Below, one piece after another: positions 12,017-60,499 of a DNA stretch of 64,000 bases (its first letter is position 1; every line of letters starts with the position of its first letter). The notes beneath the pieces were generated by a model that saw only the letters and a program-made list of their open reading frames with translations, was not told where the DNA came from and ran no database searches. The stretch spans positions 1,647 through 65,646 of the forward strand of contig JAFZHX010000003.1 of the NCBI GenBank assembly GCA_017554665.1, read 5' to 3'. A program made the translations under genes and the position numbers. The stretch is from Alphaproteobacteria bacterium (GTDB lineage: Bacteria > Pseudomonadota > Alphaproteobacteria > Rs-D84).

Positions 12017-12454
12017 TTATTCGATAACGATTAAAGGTTGGTCAAATTCAACCGCTGCACCATCTTTGACCAAGATTTCTTTTACAATACCGTCTTTGTC
12101 AGATTTGATAGGGTTGAAAGTTTTCATTGCTTCAACCAGTGCGACAGTGTCGCCAGCTTTAACAGCAGTACCTTCTGAAACAAATGTGTCTGCGCCAGGC
12201 TCTGGTGCGAGGTACACAACACCCACCATCGGAGATTTTAACGCATAACCATTAATAGTTTGTGTTGATGGAGAGTTTGTTTCTGTTTTTGCATCTGTCG
12301 AAGCTACAGCAACTGTTGCAGCTACCTGCTGTTTTGATAAATGAATATGTTTGCGATATAACCCAAACAAGAACTGACGTTCCAAGTCCAGTTCTGTAAT
12401 GCCCATATCATCCATGATTTTTGACATAGATTCAACGGTTGCACGAAATGACAT
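12017..12454 (-). CDS. accB: Acetyl-CoA carboxylase biotin carboxyl carrier protein
   Basis: C-terminal biotinyl domain with EAMKT motif; immediately upstream of accC. Confidence 0.9.
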   Translation of the reverse strand: MSFRATVESMSKIMDDMGITELDLERQFLFGLYRKHIHLSKQQVAATVAVASTDAKTETNSPSTQTINGYALKSPMVGVVYLAPEPGADTFVSEGTAVKAGDTVALVEAMKTFNPIKSDKDGIVKEILVKDGAAVEFDQPLIVIE

Positions 12455-12521
12455 TTTATTCCCTTTTGTTTTATTATCTATCTCGCATATTATTAAGATT
12501 CTATCATATTAACTGCCATTG

Positions 12522-12732
12522 TCAAGGCACAGGGTCGTATCCGAATCCGCCACCTGGTCTGCATCGACAAATGCGTTTTATGCCCATGTATGTACCACGT
12601 ATTATACCATATTTTTCAATAGATTGTTTTGTGTATTCGCTGCAACTTGGTGTAAATCTGCATACATTCTTACCACCGATAAAAGGTGATATAGCATGCT
12701 GGTATAGGTGTACCATATATATAGCGATTTTT

Positions 12733-12740
<8 letters not shown>
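12522..12740 (-). CDS. yidD: Membrane protein insertion efficiency factor YidD
   Basis: HLYQHAISPFIGGKNVCRFTPSCSEYTKQSIEKYG characteristic YidD sequence. Confidence 0.85.
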
Positions 12741-14245
<1,505 letters not shown>

Positions 14246-14277
14246 TAAAAAAAAGCCGGCAAAAGCCGGTTTTTTTA
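14246..14277. terminator. Bidirectional intrinsic terminator (GCCGGC-AAAA-GCCGGT); 36-bp near-identical copy at 18616
   Basis: aaaaaaaaGCCGGCaaaaGCCGGTtttttttattg. Confidence 0.6.
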
Positions 14278-14739
14278 TTGTCTTTTTTTTCTAAATTCAT
14301 CAAGCGATACAACGCGTCCTGGATCTGGAACAGAATCAGGTTTTTCTTCCAAAGGCAATTCCATATCGTTGTCTGCAGATTGTAACTGAGATTTATTTTG
14401 AAAAGATAAAATAAAGTCAACAGAAGGGTCTTTGAATTCGACCAGTGCAGAAAAAGGAACGCGAATAAAAAATGGTCTGCCATCAAATGTTAATTGAACA
14501 CCAAATTCTTTGTCAGAAACATGCAGATTGTTATAAGAGTATTGCAAAACAATAGTCATAATATCTGGATATCTGATGCGCAAAAAGTCTGGTAAAACCA
14601 CACCTGCATCGCGTGTGCGAAATGTTATAAAAAAGTGTGTACCATCACCTAATCCATTAAACTGAGCATGAATCAATGCATCCTTTACAATGGATTTCAA
14701 AGCGTTGTCTAAAAGTGTTTGATAATCAATACGTGCCAT
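14275..14739 (-). CDS. SspB-like ClpXP adaptor (stringent starvation protein B family), putative
   Basis: N-terminal YQTLLDNALKSIV then IVLQYSYNNL ... RVPFSALVEF pattern resembling SspB substrate-binding domain. Confidence 0.45.
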   Translation of the reverse strand: MARIDYQTLLDNALKSIVKDALIHAQFNGLGDGTHFFITFRTRDAGVVLPDFLRIRYPDIMTIVLQYSYNNLHVSDKEFGVQLTFDGRPFFIRVPFSALVEFKDPSVDFILSFQNKSQLQSADNDMELPLEEKPDSVPDPGRVVSLDEFRKKRQ

Positions 14740-14745
14740 AATAAT

Positions 14746-15825
14746 TTACTCCGCCAATACTATATTATTTATTTCCCCATTATGGCAAGCAACAAATACT
14801 GCATTGGGAACATTTTTGAAAATTTCGGCATCAAGTCCAGTTGCCCAAACTTGTGCATTTGCATCACCTAGCTCTTTAAACAGGTTTTCACGAGCAGTTG
14901 AATCCAAGTGAGCTGCTGCTTCGTCCAGCAAAATTAAAATCTGTTTACCTGTTTTGACATGAACCAGTTTTGCGTGTGCCAGTATCAAGTCAATCAGTGC
15001 GGTTTTTTGTTGTCCTGTACTAGTTAAATTAGCCGGCAAATTTAATTCATTATTAAAAACACCAAAGTCAGATTTATGAGGTCCGTCCAATATCATTTTG
15101 TCTGCTACCAAACATCTGTTTTCGCGTAAGTATTCCAGATATTTTCTTTCGACATCACCTGCGGTCAATCCATCGATTAGCATTTGCTCTAACATGCCCG
15201 AAACAGAAACGGCGCATTTTTTTAAAAAGTAATTTAATTCCCCTGCGTATTGGATTCGTGCAGTAGCAACAGCGACAGAAGTTCCTGCAATTTGTGTGTC
15301 CAGTGCATCTAGCCAATGAGAGTCTGAACTAGTTTTTAGTGCGTATGCGCGTTCTGATAACAGCTTTGCAAGTTTTGCGGTGCGACCTGCATGCGAAGAA
15401 TCAAAGCTTGTTGCAAGTCTATCGAAAAAAGCGCGTCTGTCAGAAGTACTGTCTATGAACAATCTGTCTTCTTTTGGTGTAAGCCAAACAACAGATATGT
15501 GTTGTGCTAACTCAGAAATTGCGCAATTGTCGCCATCTATTTTTGCGCGTCTATTAGAATCGTTTGTTGTGAAATATACAGATAAATCAGTATCATTATT
15601 TGTTGTAGCAAATACACTAAAACCGCCACTTCCACCAAATCGCGCTATGTCTTGCATAGAGGCACCACGCATTCCCCTGTCGCCAGACAGCATGGATACC
15701 GCTTCCAGTATTGCGGTTTTGCCAGCGCCGTTTGGTCCAGTGATAATGATGTTGTGTCGGCTATTGGTATTTATGCGACACATAGTATGGTTTCTAAAAT
15801 CGGTTAAGCTAATAGATTTAATCAT
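14746..15825 (-). CDS. recF: DNA replication and repair protein RecF
   Basis: MIKSISLTDFRNH...ITGPNGAGKTAILEAV Walker A, C-terminal LLDEAAAHLD; start set to ATG matching RecF N-terminus (cat 15823-15825), ORF-track 5' extension judged spurious. Confidence 0.85.
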   Translation of the reverse strand: MIKSISLTDFRNHTMCRINTNSRHNIIITGPNGAGKTAILEAVSMLSGDRGMRGASMQDIARFGGSGGFSVFATTNNDTDLSVYFTTNDSNRRAKIDGDNCAISELAQHISVVWLTPKEDRLFIDSTSDRRAFFDRLATSFDSSHAGRTAKLAKLLSERAYALKTSSDSHWLDALDTQIAGTSVAVATARIQYAGELNYFLKKCAVSVSGMLEQMLIDGLTAGDVERKYLEYLRENRCLVADKMILDGPHKSDFGVFNNELNLPANLTSTGQQKTALIDLILAHAKLVHVKTGKQILILLDEAAAHLDSTARENLFKELGDANAQVWATGLDAEIFKNVPNAVFVACHNGEINNIVLAE

Positions 15826-15862
15826 GTATGACATCATACACATAGAACAGGTATATTTCAAA

Positions 15863-15896
15863 ACAAAAAACACCCACAAAGGGGTGTTTTTTATTT
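15863..15896. terminator. Bidirectional intrinsic terminator
   Basis: aaaaaaCACCCacaaaGGGGTGttttttatttt directly 3' of tRNA-Cys (minus). Confidence 0.55.
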
Positions 15897-15970
15897 TGGA
15901 GGCCTGGGTCGGAATCGAACCGGCATAGAAGGATTTGCAGTCCTCTGCATAACCACTCTGCCACCAGGCC
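15897..15970 (-). tRNA. tRNA-Cys (anticodon GCA)
   Basis: Reverse complement GGCCTGGTGGCAGAGTGGTTATGCAGAGGACTGCAAATCCTTCTATGCCGGTTCGATTCCGACCCAGGCCTCCA; anticodon loop CTGCAAA. Confidence 0.9.
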
Positions 15971-24058: not shown

Positions 24059-24114
24059 ATTTTTTATAATTCCTGATTTATAAATTATGTTTTTTCTGAT
24101 ATAATATTATCACC

Positions 24115-26355
24115 ATGGCAAAGAAATTCAACTTATTATCGGCATCTGGTAAAGGAAAAGGTATAAATATTTTCCGCTCCAGCGCATACAAAGAGCACGA
24201 GCAAACACCTCTCGCGCGTGAGTTTTGGTCTATTCGCTGGACTATAATTGTCTGGTTGATTGCAGCATTAATGTTTGCGTGTTCTTTTCCAATAGAACAC
24301 ATTTGGCGCTATGGCTGGTCTCCTGCTACTAAGCATTGGATTGATGTGTTTTTTGTCCAAGCCGTATCTACATTTGGGCTTTCTATTCTGGCAGAAGTTC
24401 CATATTGGTTTGTTCGTTGTATTGCGCGTCCTGATTGGTCATGTATTGCGCCGTTGTTACCTTTGGTTGGTTATTATTTGTTGGCAGACGCAACTATGAC
24501 AGACGAATTTAACCCACATGCCAAGGATAAATTTGATGAAAAATCTTCGCGCAAGGCCAATGCAGACGATATCAAAAAAATGGGTACAGACTACAAGAAC
24601 AAAGACGGTCTGTTCAAAGGGTTTATGATGGTCTTGGGCTTCTTCAAGAGCAAACCTCTTAAAATGGACGAAACTTTATCTGCTTTGTTACTTGCTCCTG
24701 CTGGTACTGGTAAAACACAGGGTGTTGTAATTCCGACTATTTTAGGTTGTGATAATGTTTCAATGATTATTAATGACCCTAAGCCTGAATTGGATGGTGC
24801 TACATCTGCATATCGTGCAACTATTGGTCCTGTATTTATTATGAATTGGGCGGCGCGTGACGAACCGGAACGCGGTATATATTATCCTGCTTGGAATCCT
24901 TTGTCTCCGGAAAACTTGCCAGATAATGACGAAGAAAAAAGCACATATATTCAGGTTATTGTTAACTCTATTATTGAAGAAAACGCCAAAGACCCACACT
25001 GGTCTAATACTGCGCGTGCTGCGTTAACTGGCTTTATTAACTTTATTGTATCCAAAGTAGAACGCGCCAAGGCGAACGACTATTTTTATCACAGATTGAA
25101 AAACGGTACATTTGATTCTCAAGACGCGACTGTTTTGATGGATTACTATATGACGATGACATCAGATCCAAATGCGTATGCTGCGATGTCTTTATTGCAA
25201 CGCGGAGAATTAAATATTAACAACTATGTTCATGTTGGAACATGGGGTGGCTTGCCTTCTGAGTGGCATGGTGGCGAAGCTTCTATTCCAATGTTCTTGG
25301 CTTGGTATGTCGAAGGTCAAATAAAGGTTGCAAATGAACTTGAAGAACGCAAGCGTCAAGGCGACCAAATGGTTATGATGGCAGACCCAATGAAAGATTT
25401 CTTAACAGAAGCTGTAAACGAAGCTCGTCTGTATGCATATGACAGTGATGCTGTTTCTGCTTTAATTAACTTGTCTAATACACCTGATAAAGAACGTGGT
25501 TCTGTTATATCTACAATGAATGCTGGATTGAATATTTTCCGTCATCCTGCGGTTAACAAACATACTCGTCATTCTGACATACATTTCGGCGATATGCGTG
25601 GTATGGTTGATCCTACAGATGGTAAGATGAAGCCAATCACGATTTACTTGTCAATGAATGTTGCGGATGCGCCTGCGTTCAGTCCTATTACCACTATGTT
25701 TATTGAACTGTTATCGAACTTCTTGATTGCGAATAAGCCAGATCAAGTAAATCATGGTCAAAAGCTCGGGCCTTACGCTGCTCTGTTTGTGTTGGACGAA
25801 ATGCCAACGATGAACAAGCTAGAGGCTATTATTCGTGGTCCTGCGGTTGGTCGTGGTCAGAAAGTATCTTATTTGATTGTTGGTCAGGATATTAGTCAGA
25901 TTGCAGAAAAGTACGGCGACAAAGCTGCTGATACAATTATTGCTAATACTGCGGCCAAGGTTATCTTGCGTGTGAATGATCCTGCAACAGCTGAACGCTT
26001 TACTCGTATGATTGGCAAGAAAAAGACCAAGAAAAAGGAAAAAGGTCCAGATGGCAAGGATAAAGAAGTAGATAAAGAAGAAGATTTGTTTAGTCCAATG
26101 GATTTGATGACATTGCCAAAGGGTAAACAGCTTGTTCTGATGCAGGGTTATTATAATCGCCCAATTGAAGCTGATGGAGAATGGCATTTCTATCGTAAAA
26201 ATGCGGTGCAGATTGCCATGAATGACAAGGTGAGAATGGGACGTGCTTCGCCAATACCTGAATATTTAATACCAAAGCATCATCGTGCGTTGCGATATGC
26301 GGGTAAGCCTTGTGTGTATGATGCGAAAACCCAAAAAATAAAAGAATTATCCTAA
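24115..26355 (+). CDS. virD4: Type IV secretion coupling protein, VirD4/TraG/TrwB family (T4CP)
   Basis: Two N-terminal TM segments; Walker A LLLAPAGTGKTQGVVIPTIL; Walker B/T4CP motif ALFVLDEMPTMNKLE; ANTAAKVILRVND; Lys-rich C-terminal tail. Confidence 0.8.
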   Translation: MAKKFNLLSASGKGKGINIFRSSAYKEHEQTPLAREFWSIRWTIIVWLIAALMFACSFPIEHIWRYGWSPATKHWIDVFFVQAVSTFGLSILAEVPYWFVRCIARPDWSCIAPLLPLVGYYLLADATMTDEFNPHAKDKFDEKSSRKANADDIKKMGTDYKNKDGLFKGFMMVLGFFKSKPLKMDETLSALLLAPAGTGKTQGVVIPTILGCDNVSMIINDPKPELDGATSAYRATIGPVFIMNWAARDEPERGIYYPAWNPLSPENLPDNDEEKSTYIQVIVNSIIEENAKDPHWSNTARAALTGFINFIVSKVERAKANDYFYHRLKNGTFDSQDATVLMDYYMTMTSDPNAYAAMSLLQRGELNINNYVHVGTWGGLPSEWHGGEASIPMFLAWYVEGQIKVANELEERKRQGDQMVMMADPMKDFLTEAVNEARLYAYDSDAVSALINLSNTPDKERGSVISTMNAGLNIFRHPAVNKHTRHSDIHFGDMRGMVDPTDGKMKPITIYLSMNVADAPAFSPITTMFIELLSNFLIANKPDQVNHGQKLGPYAALFVLDEMPTMNKLEAIIRGPAVGRGQKVSYLIVGQDISQIAEKYGDKAADTIIANTAAKVILRVNDPATAERFTRMIGKKKTKKKEKGPDGKDKEVDKEEDLFSPMDLMTLPKGKQLVLMQGYYNRPIEADGEWHFYRKNAVQIAMNDKVRMGRASPIPEYLIPKHHRALRYAGKPCVYDAKTQKIKELS

Positions 26356-26388
26356 TAAAAAAAGCCGGTTTTTACCGGTCTTTTTATT
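26356..26388. terminator. Bidirectional intrinsic terminator (GCCGG family)
   Basis: aaaaaaAGCCGGTttttACCGGTCttttt. Confidence 0.55.
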
Positions 26389-27250
26389 ATATTTTTAACT
26401 TCTTTTTCATCTCTGTTAATACAGGTACTTCGATTCCTAATGTGTTTGCGCGTTCTATAAGACCGCACAGTGCATGGATACCTTCAACAGTTCCTTCGGC
26501 TTTCAAACCGTTGGCAATTGCGATCCCACCAGAGTAATTACGGCTGGTTGTGCTTGTTGCAGACAAGAACAAATCACCTAAGCCACAAAGTCCTAAAAAT
26601 GTTGCGACTTGTGCGCCTGATGCAATACCGATTTTTACAACATCGTCCCAAACGCGTGTGAACAACAAAGCGCGTTCGTTTTCTCCGCGTGCCATAACAG
26701 AATTGTAGCCACTGATAAGAGCTGCTGCGTTTTTACCAACACCGCAAATTTCTGTGCCGATAACATCGCTAATAGGTTCTAAATATAATTTGTTTAATGC
26801 TTGTTGTGCTGCGACAATTGCATTGTTTGTGCCAGCAAGTGTCGAGCCCGTAGGAACGCCTTGTGCAACTTCTGCTGCGAATTGTGGTCCAGAAAGAACA
26901 CCGAAATCAACACATTCTGGCAATACATCGTGCAGTATTTCAGACATAAATTCACCTGTCGAGCATTCTGCGCCTTTTGTGCAAATAATAACAGGTTGTC
27001 CGTTATAAAATTCGCGTGCTTTTTTTAGTGTTTCTCGGAAAAAAGCAGATGGAGTTACGATTAACCATGTGTCAGTTTCTCTCAAATTGGACATTTCTTT
27101 GGTTATGGTCAAGCCGTTTGGCATTGTTACACCATCGAATTCTTTATACTGACCGTCAAACGACCATAATACAGTTTCATTTCCGCTGTGTGTTGCAGTT
27201 ATAGCCAGTGCGGTCCCCCAAGCGCCCGCACCAATTACGCCTATTTTCAT
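26387..27250 (-). CDS. gpsA: NAD(P)H-dependent glycerol-3-phosphate dehydrogenase
   Basis: MKIGVIGAGAWGTALA Rossmann N-terminus. Confidence 0.85.
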   Translation of the reverse strand: MKIGVIGAGAWGTALAITATHSGNETVLWSFDGQYKEFDGVTMPNGLTITKEMSNLRETDTWLIVTPSAFFRETLKKAREFYNGQPVIICTKGAECSTGEFMSEILHDVLPECVDFGVLSGPQFAAEVAQGVPTGSTLAGTNNAIVAAQQALNKLYLEPISDVIGTEICGVGKNAAALISGYNSVMARGENERALLFTRVWDDVVKIGIASGAQVATFLGLCGLGDLFLSATSTTSRNYSGGIAIANGLKAEGTVEGIHALCGLIERANTLGIEVPVLTEMKKKLKI

Positions 27251-39413: not shown

Positions 39414-39926
39414 TTAATATCGACCAATACATCCCAGATAAGAATTTCCTGTAGATTCCAGGATGTTTATAAACTGATTTTGATTTTTGCCAGAAAATAG
39501 AGCCAATATTGTGCCTGTGTCAGTAGCTAGCATATCTGCAACTGTGGCAATGCCAGAGTTCATTTTCTTGAAAAATCCACTAGCTGGATAGATTTCTGCG
39601 GCAAGCAACTGATTTGCGCCACGTGGTTTCGCATTCTTCTGAGATTCTATAACCATTAACTGGCATTCCGGAGAGATAATCAGCTTATCGCTGACCACAG
39701 CATCGCTACCAAGCAATTCACCCCACCACCCGGTAGAGCCACAAAAAACAGGCATATAGATTGTTGTATTTGGATTTTGTTCCAAAATCTCGGAAATGTC
39801 TTTGTCGTCGTTACATACCTCTGGCATCACGCCGGTCGAGTTGTTTATAACTTTACGTGCCAACTGGTATTCGTTATCCCCAGTTGTTTTGCGTGGCCAA
39901 TAAAGAATCGGAAACTTTTTCATCAC
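39414..39926 (-). CDS. Hypothetical protein
   Basis: 170-aa ORF upstream of rpmE; no family recognised. Confidence 0.35.
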   Translation of the reverse strand: MMKKFPILYWPRKTTGDNEYQLARKVINNSTGVMPEVCNDDKDISEILEQNPNTTIYMPVFCGSTGWWGELLGSDAVVSDKLIISPECQLMVIESQKNAKPRGANQLLAAEIYPASGFFKKMNSGIATVADMLATDTGTILALFSGKNQNQFINILESTGNSYLGCIGRY

Positions 39927-39991: not shown

Positions 39992-41302
39992 TTAATTTTT
40001 CATCTTTTCGTACCATTTTTTAGCATCTTCCCACAAAATTTTTGTATGGTTTTTTATTTTTTCATAATACTCGGTTGATATCTGAACATTGAACAAAGAC
40101 TTGACCAGTGCGGGAATCATAGTCATAAACATAGTCAAAAACAGTCCTAATAATATAATTGTAATCAAGCTACTATTAACTGTGTTGTCGCCAGATTTTT
40201 TCAATAACAAAGCATCCATCAAGAATTTCGAATCGTTTTGTTGTATTGCGGTATTAAGTGCATCTGCACCCGCCCAGTCCCCAAAAATAGCATTCAAGAA
40301 CATAATAGCAAAGGATACAAAAACACCTGTTATTGCAATGCCAAGTGTGGCAGATATGGTATTATCAATGATTGAACGTAACGATTTTCCAACGCCAGCA
40401 AGCGAGATTTTCCAGTCTTTGAACAGCCATGCCAACAACATCAAAGGTAACATGACCAAGTCCATAGATAATTTTACAAATACTTCCAGGAAATATATTG
40501 GTATCGGCACCAGTGCCATAAAGAACAGCATCAATATTGTTGCGCCCGCAAAAAATAAAATAACATTTGGGCATATTGGTATGGTCCACATAATTTTATG
40601 CATATAGTCCGAATCGAATGCCATATTAAGCATTGTCCAGCCGATTGTCATACCAAGCCCTGTCATTTGATGGATTGCAGATATTTCACAAACTAATTGA
40701 TGTCTAAGTTTTGGCGAAAAAGCACCATTTTTTGCGGCGTTATAGTCGCTTGTCAAAGGATCTGCCGCTGCTGTTGATACAATACACACATCAAAGTCAT
40801 CGTCATGTGCCACCATGCGATTCATAGTAAGGCCAATATTAAAAATAGGTTCTATTGCGACATCTGTTATCAGTTTTGGTAATGGTATAAACAATAACAT
40901 ACACACAAAAGCCAGCTTCAAAGAATGGTTACCGAATTTTGCTGCAATATTCCAAGGTTCTTCAACCTTGCCGTTTAACATGCCGTACATCAAAGTCCAT
41001 ACAAGCCATATTATAGTTAGCCCAATTGCAATAGGTACAATAGATTGCCCAATAGCGTTATATACACGAGGTAAAAGTACAGACATAGACGATAAAACAT
41101 CTGAAAACATTTGGCATGACCAGCACCCTGAAAAGAATTGTAGCGATTCGGACATGTTAACTGGCGAAAAAGATCTGTATATTGAATATCCTACGATAGA
41201 TCCAATGCCCGTAAAAGCAGTAAGCGCAAGGGGTGAAGCAATACCTGCACTAAATGGCAGGAACGATAAAAACACTATCCAAAATTTTTTTAATCGATTC
41301 AT
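39992..41302 (-). CDS. Paralogous polytopic membrane protein 1 (VirB6/TrbL-like, putative), divergent from the array
   Basis: Signal/TM MNRLKKFWIVFLSFLPFSAG; FFSGCWSCQMFSDVL motif; core FVKLSMDLVMLPLMLLA; C-term KILWEDAKKWYEKMKN; start assumed at internal ATG (cat 41300-41302), could be 41353. Confidence 0.55.
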   Translation of the reverse strand: MNRLKKFWIVFLSFLPFSAGIASPLALTAFTGIGSIVGYSIYRSFSPVNMSESLQFFSGCWSCQMFSDVLSSMSVLLPRVYNAIGQSIVPIAIGLTIIWLVWTLMYGMLNGKVEEPWNIAAKFGNHSLKLAFVCMLLFIPLPKLITDVAIEPIFNIGLTMNRMVAHDDDFDVCIVSTAAADPLTSDYNAAKNGAFSPKLRHQLVCEISAIHQMTGLGMTIGWTMLNMAFDSDYMHKIMWTIPICPNVILFFAGATILMLFFMALVPIPIYFLEVFVKLSMDLVMLPLMLLAWLFKDWKISLAGVGKSLRSIIDNTISATLGIAITGVFVSFAIMFLNAIFGDWAGADALNTAIQQNDSKFLMDALLLKKSGDNTVNSSLITIILLGLFLTMFMTMIPALVKSLFNVQISTEYYEKIKNHTKILWEDAKKWYEKMKN

Positions 41303-41335
41303 TGTTTTTAAGTATATCATATTTTGTCCCAAATG

Positions 41336-59470: not shown

Positions 59471-60499
59471 TTAGAAAGTTATACGCATGCCTGCGGATAT
59501 GAACGGAGTTTTTGAGGTTGTTCCGCCAGATATCCAGCCGTCAACATTTTCGCTATATTTATATCTGAATGATGCAACGACAGTGTTGTCTATAAAGTCA
59601 TCAATATCATTTTGCCAAACGCCTGTGTCGGATAGCATATAAGTCAAAGATAGACTATATTTTAAAACATCGTAACTGATACCTGTTCCAACAACAAATC
59701 CATCAGATATGTCGCCAATTGGGTTATGGTCATATATCAAGCGACCTGTTAAACCGACAATCCAGCTGTTGTATTGCATGTTCATACCCAAAGACATTTG
59801 TGTTCGCCAATCGGCAGTAACACCAGGAGTATAAACTTCGTTGTCAAAATTGTCGGGCTTGTTCATAAAAGATGCACCGACAGAATAAGCGGTTTTTAAT
59901 TTTCCAGAAGATTTGCGTAATTTTAAACCAGCATCAAACGCCCAATCATAATCGTCAGTTATGCCGGATACAGAAACACCATATTGCCATCCGTTATTAA
60001 TAGTTGATGCTAAATTTAGTCTTAAAGATTTGCTGCGTCCAGAAGTCAAAGTTGTATCTGCGATAATAGGACCGTTTGAATGGATTTTTTCATTATACAA
60101 AGGTCTATCGTTTATTCGCAAACCACCAACATCAGGCAGTCCAAGTCCCAGTTTGCGTGCGATTGAATCTGTGAAGCCAATTTCTATGCGTCCGACAGAT
60201 TTAAATTGAAAAAAACCAAAAGCTTCGCGCGAAAAGTAACCTTTGTTCAAAGCATTATGGTCTAGTGCATAAACCAGACCAAAGTTTGTGTTTTCAAAAG
60301 AAGAATTTGTTATTTGTGTTCGTACGCGCCAATCGCCAATAAATAATGGGGTTTCGAAGTTTGGGTTAATCATACCGCTGGTTGCGTACCCTGTTATTTT
60401 TAAAGAATTATTTCCTGTGCTGTATTCCAAAGCAATCGCGTTGTGCGATGCTAATGCAGTCAACATCGCTACAAGCACCGTTTTGTTAAAAATAGACAT
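59471..60499 (-). CDS. Outer-membrane beta-barrel protein (porin-like)
   Basis: Signal peptide MSIFNKTVLVAMLTALASHNAIA; alternating amphipathic strands; C-terminal ...GMRITF (terminal Phe). Confidence 0.6.
   Translation of the reverse strand: MSIFNKTVLVAMLTALASHNAIALEYSTGNNSLKITGYATSGMINPNFETPLFIGDWRVRTQITNSSFENTNFGLVYALDHNALNKGYFSREAFGFFQFKSVGRIEIGFTDSIARKLGLGLPDVGGLRINDRPLYNEKIHSNGPIIADTTLTSGRSKSLRLNLASTINNGWQYGVSVSGITDDYDWAFDAGLKLRKSSGKLKTAYSVGASFMNKPDNFDNEVYTPGVTADWRTQMSLGMNMQYNSWIVGLTGRLIYDHNPIGDISDGFVVGTGISYDVLKYSLSLTYMLSDTGVWQNDIDDFIDNTVVASFRYKYSENVDGWISGGTTSKTPFISAGMRITF

Follow-up and report, generated by a model that had tools for sequence, protein, structure and literature searches.

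In plasmid-borne type IV secretion systems (T4SSs) of the VirB/D4 type (P-type, MPF_T), the gene for the type IV coupling protein (T4CP) VirD4 ends a MobA/L-virB2...virB11-virD4 operon. In the chromosomal rvh system of Rickettsiales, virD4 closes the virB8-virB11 cluster, and the virB6 array comes after virB3-virB4. Helicobacter pylori carries the T4CP Cagbeta in its cag island; this protein serves a T4SS that translocates effectors and is not conjugative, and it is regulated by a small partner, CagZ. Here we describe a T4CP gene of the VirD4/TraG family in a 64,000-nucleotide stretch of DNA (the window; contig JAFZHX010000003.1) from an alphaproteobacterium of the GTDB order Rs-D84, referred to below as Enterousia. 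Unlike plasmid virD4, this gene is monocistronic and lies among housekeeping genes with no relaxase gene nearby. We estimate a probability of about 60% that its product is functional and acts as the coupling protein of a VirB-type T4SS dispersed over the chromosome, loosely similar to that of Rickettsiales.

The proposed system would resemble rvh as a chromosomal T4SS in a host-dependent alphaproteobacterium with a reduced genome, distributed over scattered islands and including about five VirB6 paralogs in tandem. As in rvh, there are two copies of VirB8 in relatives of Enterousia. The systems differ in that the T4CP gene here stands alone, no virB3 or virB4 lies by the array, and virB11 of the relatives is not directly followed by virD4. 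Compared with rvh, the Enterousia arrangement goes further, since virD4 itself is isolated and apparently independently expressed. An earlier note on this DNA had suggested either a dispersed T4SS as in Rickettsiales or a domesticated coupling protein. Of the two, the dispersed arrangement is favoured by the VirB operons of relatives described below, whereas the Rickettsiales analogy is loose, because the T4CP scores far below the VirD4 equivalog cutoffs (116 against 728 for NF010472) and because Rickettsiales keep virD4 after virB8-11. The best plasmid matches, VirD4 of Erythrobacter aureus (NZ_CP031358) and Sphingosinicella (NZ_CP035502), are 29-30% identical over 80-89% of the protein and agree with it in Pfam families, in Walker motifs and in having a membrane anchor at the N-terminus. 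Cagbeta (8DOL) is the best structural match, yet its sequence identity is 12-15%. For TrwB of R388 (1E9R), the second-best T4CP fold match, the sequence similarity is unusable (phmmer E=0.026). R388 has one VirB6 (TrwI; 7O3V, 8RT9, 8RTD), whereas the window has five VirB6-like proteins.

The assignment to the VirD4/TraG family, proposed in the earlier note, was borne out by profile and fold searches. The 746-residue product, which starts with ATG, scored 168.6 bits (E=2.9e-49) with PF02534 (T4SS-DNA_transf), whose cutoff is 20.1, far above chance, and also exceeded the Pfam cutoffs of PF12696 (TraG-D_C, 75 bits) and PF10412 (TrwB_AAD_bind, 64.5 bits). A Foldseek search of the PDB with an AlphaFold2 (AF2) model returned 35 matches at E<1e-3, all of which were Cagbeta or TrwB. 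The top match, Cagbeta 8DOL, was characterized by E=2.7e-9 over 639 aligned columns and a template modelling (TM) score of 0.53 normalised to the target; TrwB followed at E about 1e-7, and the first match outside the T4CPs was DndH-C (E=0.035). FtsK, HerA and VirB4 were absent from the significant fold matches, and no FtsK or HerA family matched in Pfam at E<=1. Since neither search returned FtsK/SpoIIIE, the alternative that the note had named, we regard the 746-residue protein as a T4CP. Its subtype could be followed as far as the T4CP Pfam families, and no NCBIfam cutoff was reached for VirD4 (NF010472, NF010424), TraG (NF010453, NF010450), TraD (TIGR02759) or the CD1115-type (NF045973); the best score was 144.8 against 250 for NF045973, and those besides NF010472 were lower. 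By these scores, the protein represents a separate, divergent subfamily within a well-known family.

The two N-terminal transmembrane helices and the Walker A and B motifs described previously were recovered (Table 1), and the AF2 model places four helices in residues 32-123 (32-66, 70-85, 89-104 and 108-123). Among 81 orthologs, G197, G199 and K200 of Walker A are invariant, T201 is as in the window in 98%, and D561, E562, M563 and P564 of Walker B are invariant. The Lys-rich stretch that had been described as a C-terminal tail is an internal charged loop, since 89 residues come after it. Across the genus its charge is kept, and its sequence is variable.

The T4CP gene is flanked by rsmE (PF04452) on the left and by the convergent gpsA (PF01210/PF07479) on the right. 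The genes to the left read pnp, a TPR protein, an rluB-like pseudouridine synthase and rsmE, and those to the right gpsA, another TPR protein, rsmG, parA and parB. The GC content at the locus is 0.40, the same as in the flanks. No virB4, virB8-11 or relaxase gene is present in the whole window, in agreement with the earlier statement that the locus has neither a virB8-virB11 operon nor a conjugative region. The same was found within 10 kb on either side of the T4CP gene in 80 other Enterousia genomes, so that the gene is not co-encoded with a T4SS or a relaxase; such a neighbourhood is a contextual trait of T4CPs, not a sequence-defining one.

The signals around the gene are consistent with transcription as a single unit. 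All 66 of the ortholog loci compared have a TATAAT-like hexamer in the 45 nt ahead of the start codon, 54 of them with the TG extension, and the extended -10 element of the window (Table 1) probably acts as the working promoter. Because this element is conserved, transcription of the gene appears to be autonomous. The element ends 9 nt before the ATG, with no Shine-Dalgarno sequence in between (window 24077-24117), which suggests that the mRNA is leaderless or nearly so. On the other side, a hairpin forms a bidirectional terminator common to the T4CP gene and gpsA. The gene is thus encoded alone with a terminator, as had been noted, and in addition has a conserved promoter-like element.

An array of VirB6-like genes, reported previously at about 14 kb from the T4CP gene, begins 13.6 kb downstream of it. 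The five array proteins (memX and memA to memD) are polytopic membrane proteins of about 420-480 residues with a mutual identity of about 20%. They had no match in NCBIfam, PADLOC, PDB sequences or, by tblastn, plasmids. The connection to VirB6 came from a sister clade, in which tandem paralogs near the T4CP gene pass the Pfam TrbL/VirB6 threshold (PF04610; 33.0 and 39.0 bits against 25.9). A profile of these proteins, run against 13,194 open reading frames (ORFs), matched the array proteins alone (memX E=4.8e-7, memC E=8.5e-4), and the reverse search with an array profile matched the sister-clade VirB6 proteins alone, down to E=1e-10. Alignment of the two profiles by hhalign gave a probability of 97.8% over 234 columns. 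In the PDB, the only credible matches of the memX model were the TrwI/VirB6 chains of the R388 T4SS (probability 0.99-1.00, TM 0.47-0.56 normalised to the target), with about 340 aligned columns but weak E-values of 0.02-0.16; all other matches had a probability of 0.33 or below. Chain 7o3v_F was checked and is TrwI/VirB6, not TrwJ/VirB5. By transitive profile homology and predicted fold, the array proteins are classified as VirB6-like.

The five genes are conserved as a unit across Enterousia together with hyp170, which encodes a soluble protein without a Pfam or NCBIfam match. This gene always lies beside memX, and its protein may belong to the VirB6 unit as a sixth member, although its membership is uncertain. 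Neither virB3 nor virB4 was found in the flanks of the array in Enterousia. A listed 607-residue ORF (40815-42638) overlaps memX on the opposite strand; with the start of memA at 41370, the gap between the divergent memX and memA is at most 68 bp. A hypothetical protein encoded at the VirB6 position on plasmids was considered as a VirB6 reference and rejected as an Ala-rich soluble protein.

To the distribution of the T4CP we turned with a scan of species-level genomes, one genome per species, in which relatives were found in 163. The best 80 of these, on which the synteny counts for Enterousia are based, are all full-length with 59-92% identity and are labelled Candidatus Enterousia or unclassified Alphaproteobacteria metagenome-assembled genomes. 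An identical protein with identical neighbours occurs on ruminant-gut metagenome contigs. Among the 80 loci, practically all that are long enough to show it have the block TPR335-rluB-rsmE divergently adjoining the T4CP gene. The downstream neighbour is variable, with more than 15 kinds among the 80 species (gpsA, infC, suhB, mreB, metG, der, recF, tolC, lptFG and others). With variable neighbours downstream and a constant block upstream, the gene has a recurrent rearrangement breakpoint at its 3' end (window 26355-26390; loci L005-L084). Enterousia genomes in general appear to have been shuffled extensively into small syntenic blocks.

The median ratio of nonsynonymous to synonymous substitution rates (dN/dS) was 0.047 for the T4CP gene, 0.045 for pnp, 0.081 for rluB, 0.106 for rsmE and 0.107 for the TPR gene, values of which the ranking alone is trustworthy because dS is near saturation. 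Given the fixed position beside rsmE, the flank-like GC content, the strong purifying selection, the conserved -10 element and the invariant Walker cores, the sequence record identifies the T4CP gene as a vertically inherited, functional, single-copy chromosomal core gene of Enterousia and not a recent mobile-element insertion.

Outside Enterousia, T4CP identity falls to 42-46%, and the surroundings of the gene are richer. A metagenome scan led by an outgroup T4CP supplied 80 sister-clade loci, many from human gut. Directly upstream of the T4CP gene, 67 of 75 sister loci encode one to three paralogs of a membrane-anchored protein of about 350-390 residues with a W-rich N-terminus (UP). Downstream, a protein of 212-350 residues (DN) and another of about 144 residues (DN144) are encoded in 32 of 61. 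DN144 shows a faint SUKH_6 match (E=0.04), and the three may represent an adaptor set or an effector-immunity pair. The idea that DN212/DN144 are a toxin-immunity pair was pursued as far as this SUKH_6 match and remains speculative. Two Enterousia loci (L073, L079) carry a contiguous UP-DN-DN144 trio without the T4CP gene.

One sister locus (L120) encodes VirB8, VirB8 and VirB9 at 6-9 kb from the T4CP gene. The VirB9 family led on to a fuller operon in relatives (L178-L186), which comprises genes for six secreted proteins of no known family, VirB8, a 58-residue lipoprotein, a second VirB8, VirB9, a giant VirB10 and VirB11. VirB10 usually has about 400 residues; here it has 2,163-2,279, or is split into proteins of 589 and 1,598 residues, and beta-flower-type repeats precede its TrbI domain. 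In none of these operons does virD4 directly follow virB11. In locus L181, which ends inside a UP gene before any T4CP gene is seen, the three genes after virB11 (DnaJ-like, RHH and UP) are homologous to the three genes that precede the T4CP gene in L085, so that the T4CP module probably follows virB11 in the L181 lineage. Other contigs with an identical VirB9 protein have different genes directly after virB11. Taken together, the trio in L073 and L079 and the L181/L085 junction indicate that the solitary T4CP gene of Enterousia is likely derived, having become detached from virB11 and from the accessory module. The dispersed T4SS is favoured because the virB8-virB9-virB10-virB11 operons of relatives lack virD4 in its canonical place.

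In the dispersed arrangement that we propose, the T4CP would be a membrane-anchored, presumably hexameric ATPase whose task is to recognise substrates and pass them into a type IV secretion channel. It would be separated from the remaining VirB-type T4SS and have its own expression, from the extended -10 element to the terminator. The five VirB6-like inner-membrane paralogs would belong to the same scattered machine. If close relatives are a guide, the Enterousia genome would carry elsewhere both the UP, DN and DN144 accessory module and an operon of the order virB8-virB7-like-virB8-virB9-giant virB10-virB11. VirB4 and VirB8-11 would likewise be present in Enterousia, and the T4CP would dock onto them. 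The likeliest cargo would be protein effectors, delivered into a partner cell, rather than plasmid DNA, because neither a relaxase gene nor mobile-element genes turned up and the bacterium has a reduced genome and is probably partner-dependent.

Several observations weigh against this proposal. The window and 84 Enterousia loci contained no homolog of VirB4, VirB8, VirB9, VirB10, VirB11 or a relaxase, in a sample of about 1.5 Mb and 147-293 gene families that amounts to roughly 17-33% of a genome. VirB4 was also absent from the VirB operons of relatives and from the sister loci. Neither shared genes nor composition tied the contigs with VirB8-11 to Enterousia: they have a GC content of 0.41-0.45 and a tetranucleotide correlation (r) of 0.85-0.90, against 0.93-0.99 for true Enterousia loci, and probably belong to the nearest outgroup, not to Enterousia. 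None of the five array proteins had a Pfam match at E<=0.01, PF04610 included, and hhalign of the array against TrwI gave no signal (probability <1%). Both AF2 models are of moderate confidence, with a predicted local distance difference test (pLDDT) value of 68.9 for memX and 64.3 for the T4CP, whose TrwB-like fold (a nucleotide-binding domain with an all-alpha insertion) is less confident in the core than in the helical insertion. Finally, the type of cargo is something that we purely infer.

Table 1 Coordinates of the features described. Locations without a locus label (L) are positions in the window.
Feature	Location	Strand	Details
T4CP gene, VirD4/TraG family	24115..26355	+	ORF, Pfam, Foldseek
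Extended -10 promoter-like element	24077..24105	+	TTTATA-17-TG-TATAAT; 10/12 match, with TG; ends 9 nt before ATG
N-terminal membrane anchor	24238..24393	+	Hydrophobic segments, residues 42-60 and 75-93; Kyte-Doolittle scan
Walker A	24694..24744	+	APAGTGKTQGVVIPTIL; residues 194-210; GxGKT core
Walker B	25786..25821	+	FVLDEMPTMNKL; residues 558-569; DEMP core
Lys/Glu-rich loop	26017..26085	+	KKKTKKKEKGPDGKDKEVDKEED; residues 635-657 of 746; internal
Intrinsic terminator hairpin	26364..26379	both	GCCGGTTTTTACCGGT; GC-rich; T-runs on both strands
hyp170	39414..39926	-	Soluble, 170 aa; always beside memX; order memX-hyp170-rpmE-suhB conserved
memX	39992..41302	-	ORF extends to 41353; likely true start MNRLKK at 41302
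memA	41370-42638	+	Likely start Met 41370 (MNFIKK...)
memB	42638-43903	+	
memC	43903-45348	+	
memD	45352-46659	+	
Accessory module (UP, DN, DN144)	L120:8754-13791; L085:8841-13334; L073:18791-20730; L079:19960-21810		
Giant VirB10	L178:11685-18176; L181:11759-18598; L180:11865-18427		
Pilus operon	L039:16484-21172; L037:2583-7236; also L048, L050, L052		
Pilin-type genes	L054:9517-10008 and 12060-15957; L040:2538-2996		
Outgroup pilin/prepilin peptidase genes	L085:13456-14776; L089:9503-9958; L090:2690-3394		

A different explanation, which we consider unlikely, is that the T4CP stands alone or has been re-purposed: VirB4 and VirB8-11 would have been lost, and the T4CP would work with the VirB6 paralogs as a reduced translocon or as the partner of another envelope machine, for example a type IVb pilus. 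The absence of VirB4 and VirB8-11 from the sampled Enterousia sequence and the transcriptional autonomy of the T4CP gene agree with this explanation, and so do pilus genes. Outside the window, Enterousia has a type IVb pilus-like operon encoding PilO (PF06864, 37.8 bits against 26.7), a protein of about 235 residues, a T2SSE ATPase (213 bits) and T2SSF (94.6 bits). A small PilS-like pilin gene adjoins dnaX, and three large proteins (400-460 residues) have prepilin-type N-termini. In outgroups, such genes are direct neighbours of the T4CP gene: three pilin-like paralogs with a GRSMVEM... leader in L085, one 43 bp upstream in L089, and a Peptidase_A24 (prepilin peptidase) gene 15 bp downstream in L090. 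This adjacency could reflect a functional link or chance, as the pilin Pfam matches beside the outgroup T4CPs are below threshold and chance adjacency is possible in very small, heavily rearranged genomes. The loss of VirB4 and VirB8-11 is, moreover, read from a sample of about 17-33% of the Enterousia gene repertoire, whereas VirB8-11 are present in close relatives, and we know of no T4CP that works without VirB4.

The T4CP could instead belong to an integrated conjugative element, either as a working part or as what is left of one, and couple a relaxase-DNA complex to a conjugative T4SS. T4CPs are ancestrally conjugative, and the closest plasmid homologs (29-30% identity) end MobA/MobL-virB2...virB11-virD4 conjugation operons. 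However, searches with MobA/L and TrwC profiles found no relaxase in Enterousia or sister loci, there is no integrase among the annotated window genes, and the local GC content, the position beside rsmE across 80 species and the housekeeping-level purifying selection are those of resident chromosome, which leaves this explanation rather improbable. Highly doubtful, in our view, is a non-canonical contact apparatus of Enterousia and its relatives in which the lineage-specific T4CP subfamily, the UP/DN/DN144 proteins and the VirB6 paralogs would exchange macromolecules with the partner cells that these bacteria need, without a canonical VirB4-powered channel and perhaps together with a type IVb pilus. 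An FtsK/HerA-like DNA pump or defence ATPase without a role in secretion is close to refuted: a weak PADLOC match to the MADS protein mad8 (29.6 bits, confined to residues 557-678) and the DndH-C fold match stand against far higher scores for the T4CP Pfam families, exclusively T4CPs among the 35 significant fold matches, no defence-island neighbours, and the co-occurrence of the VirB6 array, plus VirB8-11 in relatives.

A number of other genes were inspected in the window and the related loci. Elsewhere the window carries ordinary chromosomal genes (mnmG, fabG/fabD, metG, accC, mreB, recF, tolC, lptFG, lptD, rlmN, truB, mutS, ppdK and a sigma-70 factor). The large ORFs on the minus strand between 52 and 64 kb were considered as a hidden virB4/B10/B11 operon and proved to be truB, mutS, ppdK, pta, an unknown protein and the sigma-70 factor. 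A 342-residue protein without a Pfam match (59471-60499, minus strand) has the look of an outer-membrane beta-barrel, with a signal peptide and a C-terminal ...RITF. VirB profile matches in the Enterousia loci came down to the pilus-type T2SSE ATPase and noise-level VirB3 and VirB5 hits, and the ORF with the VirB5-like match encodes a 393-residue lipoprotein. Large unknown Enterousia ORFs, considered as divergent VirB4, were all housekeeping genes. One Enterousia protein of 1,064 residues has no Pfam match at all (L046:1128-4322, minus strand). More distant "orphan" T4CPs with 33-37% identity, one of 1,013 residues, occur in chromosomal contexts without VirB genes. They are preceded by a pentapeptide-repeat protein (L092:8772-10001; L093:4227-5429) that abuts or overlaps the T4CP start, and the two repeat proteins are 37% identical to each other (E=5e-57).

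Enterousia has a genome of 0.75-1.0 Mb, cannot make amino acids, nucleotides or lipids and is without complete glycolysis and respiration, and its dependence on partner cells was inferred (PMC12306168). The same paper leaves secretion systems unmentioned and names no mechanism for the interaction with a partner, and our literature search turned up no paper addressing T4SSs in Rs-D84. The theme of a dispersed T4SS is already known from Rickettsiales. New are the fully uncoupled, monocistronic, core-gene T4CP and the lineage-specific accessory module, together with the implication of a T4SS in an abundant, uncultured, partner-dependent gut lineage. If the dispersed T4SS is real, Enterousia would provide, after Rickettsiales, a second example of an alphaproteobacterium with a reduced genome in which VirB6 has proliferated and the chromosomal T4SS is scattered. 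The gene also shows that the uncoupling of a T4CP from its machine, in transcription and in position, can be complete and the T4CP yet stay conserved. The constraint on the T4CP, the five-fold VirB6 expansion and the VirB8-11 operons of relatives with their giant VirB10 make this T4SS a candidate host-interaction machine of a gut bacterium that is prevalent, uncultured and has less than 1 Mb of genome. Effector prediction and the search for the partner organism can take the T4CP, the UP/DN/DN144 module and the VirB6 paralogs as targets.

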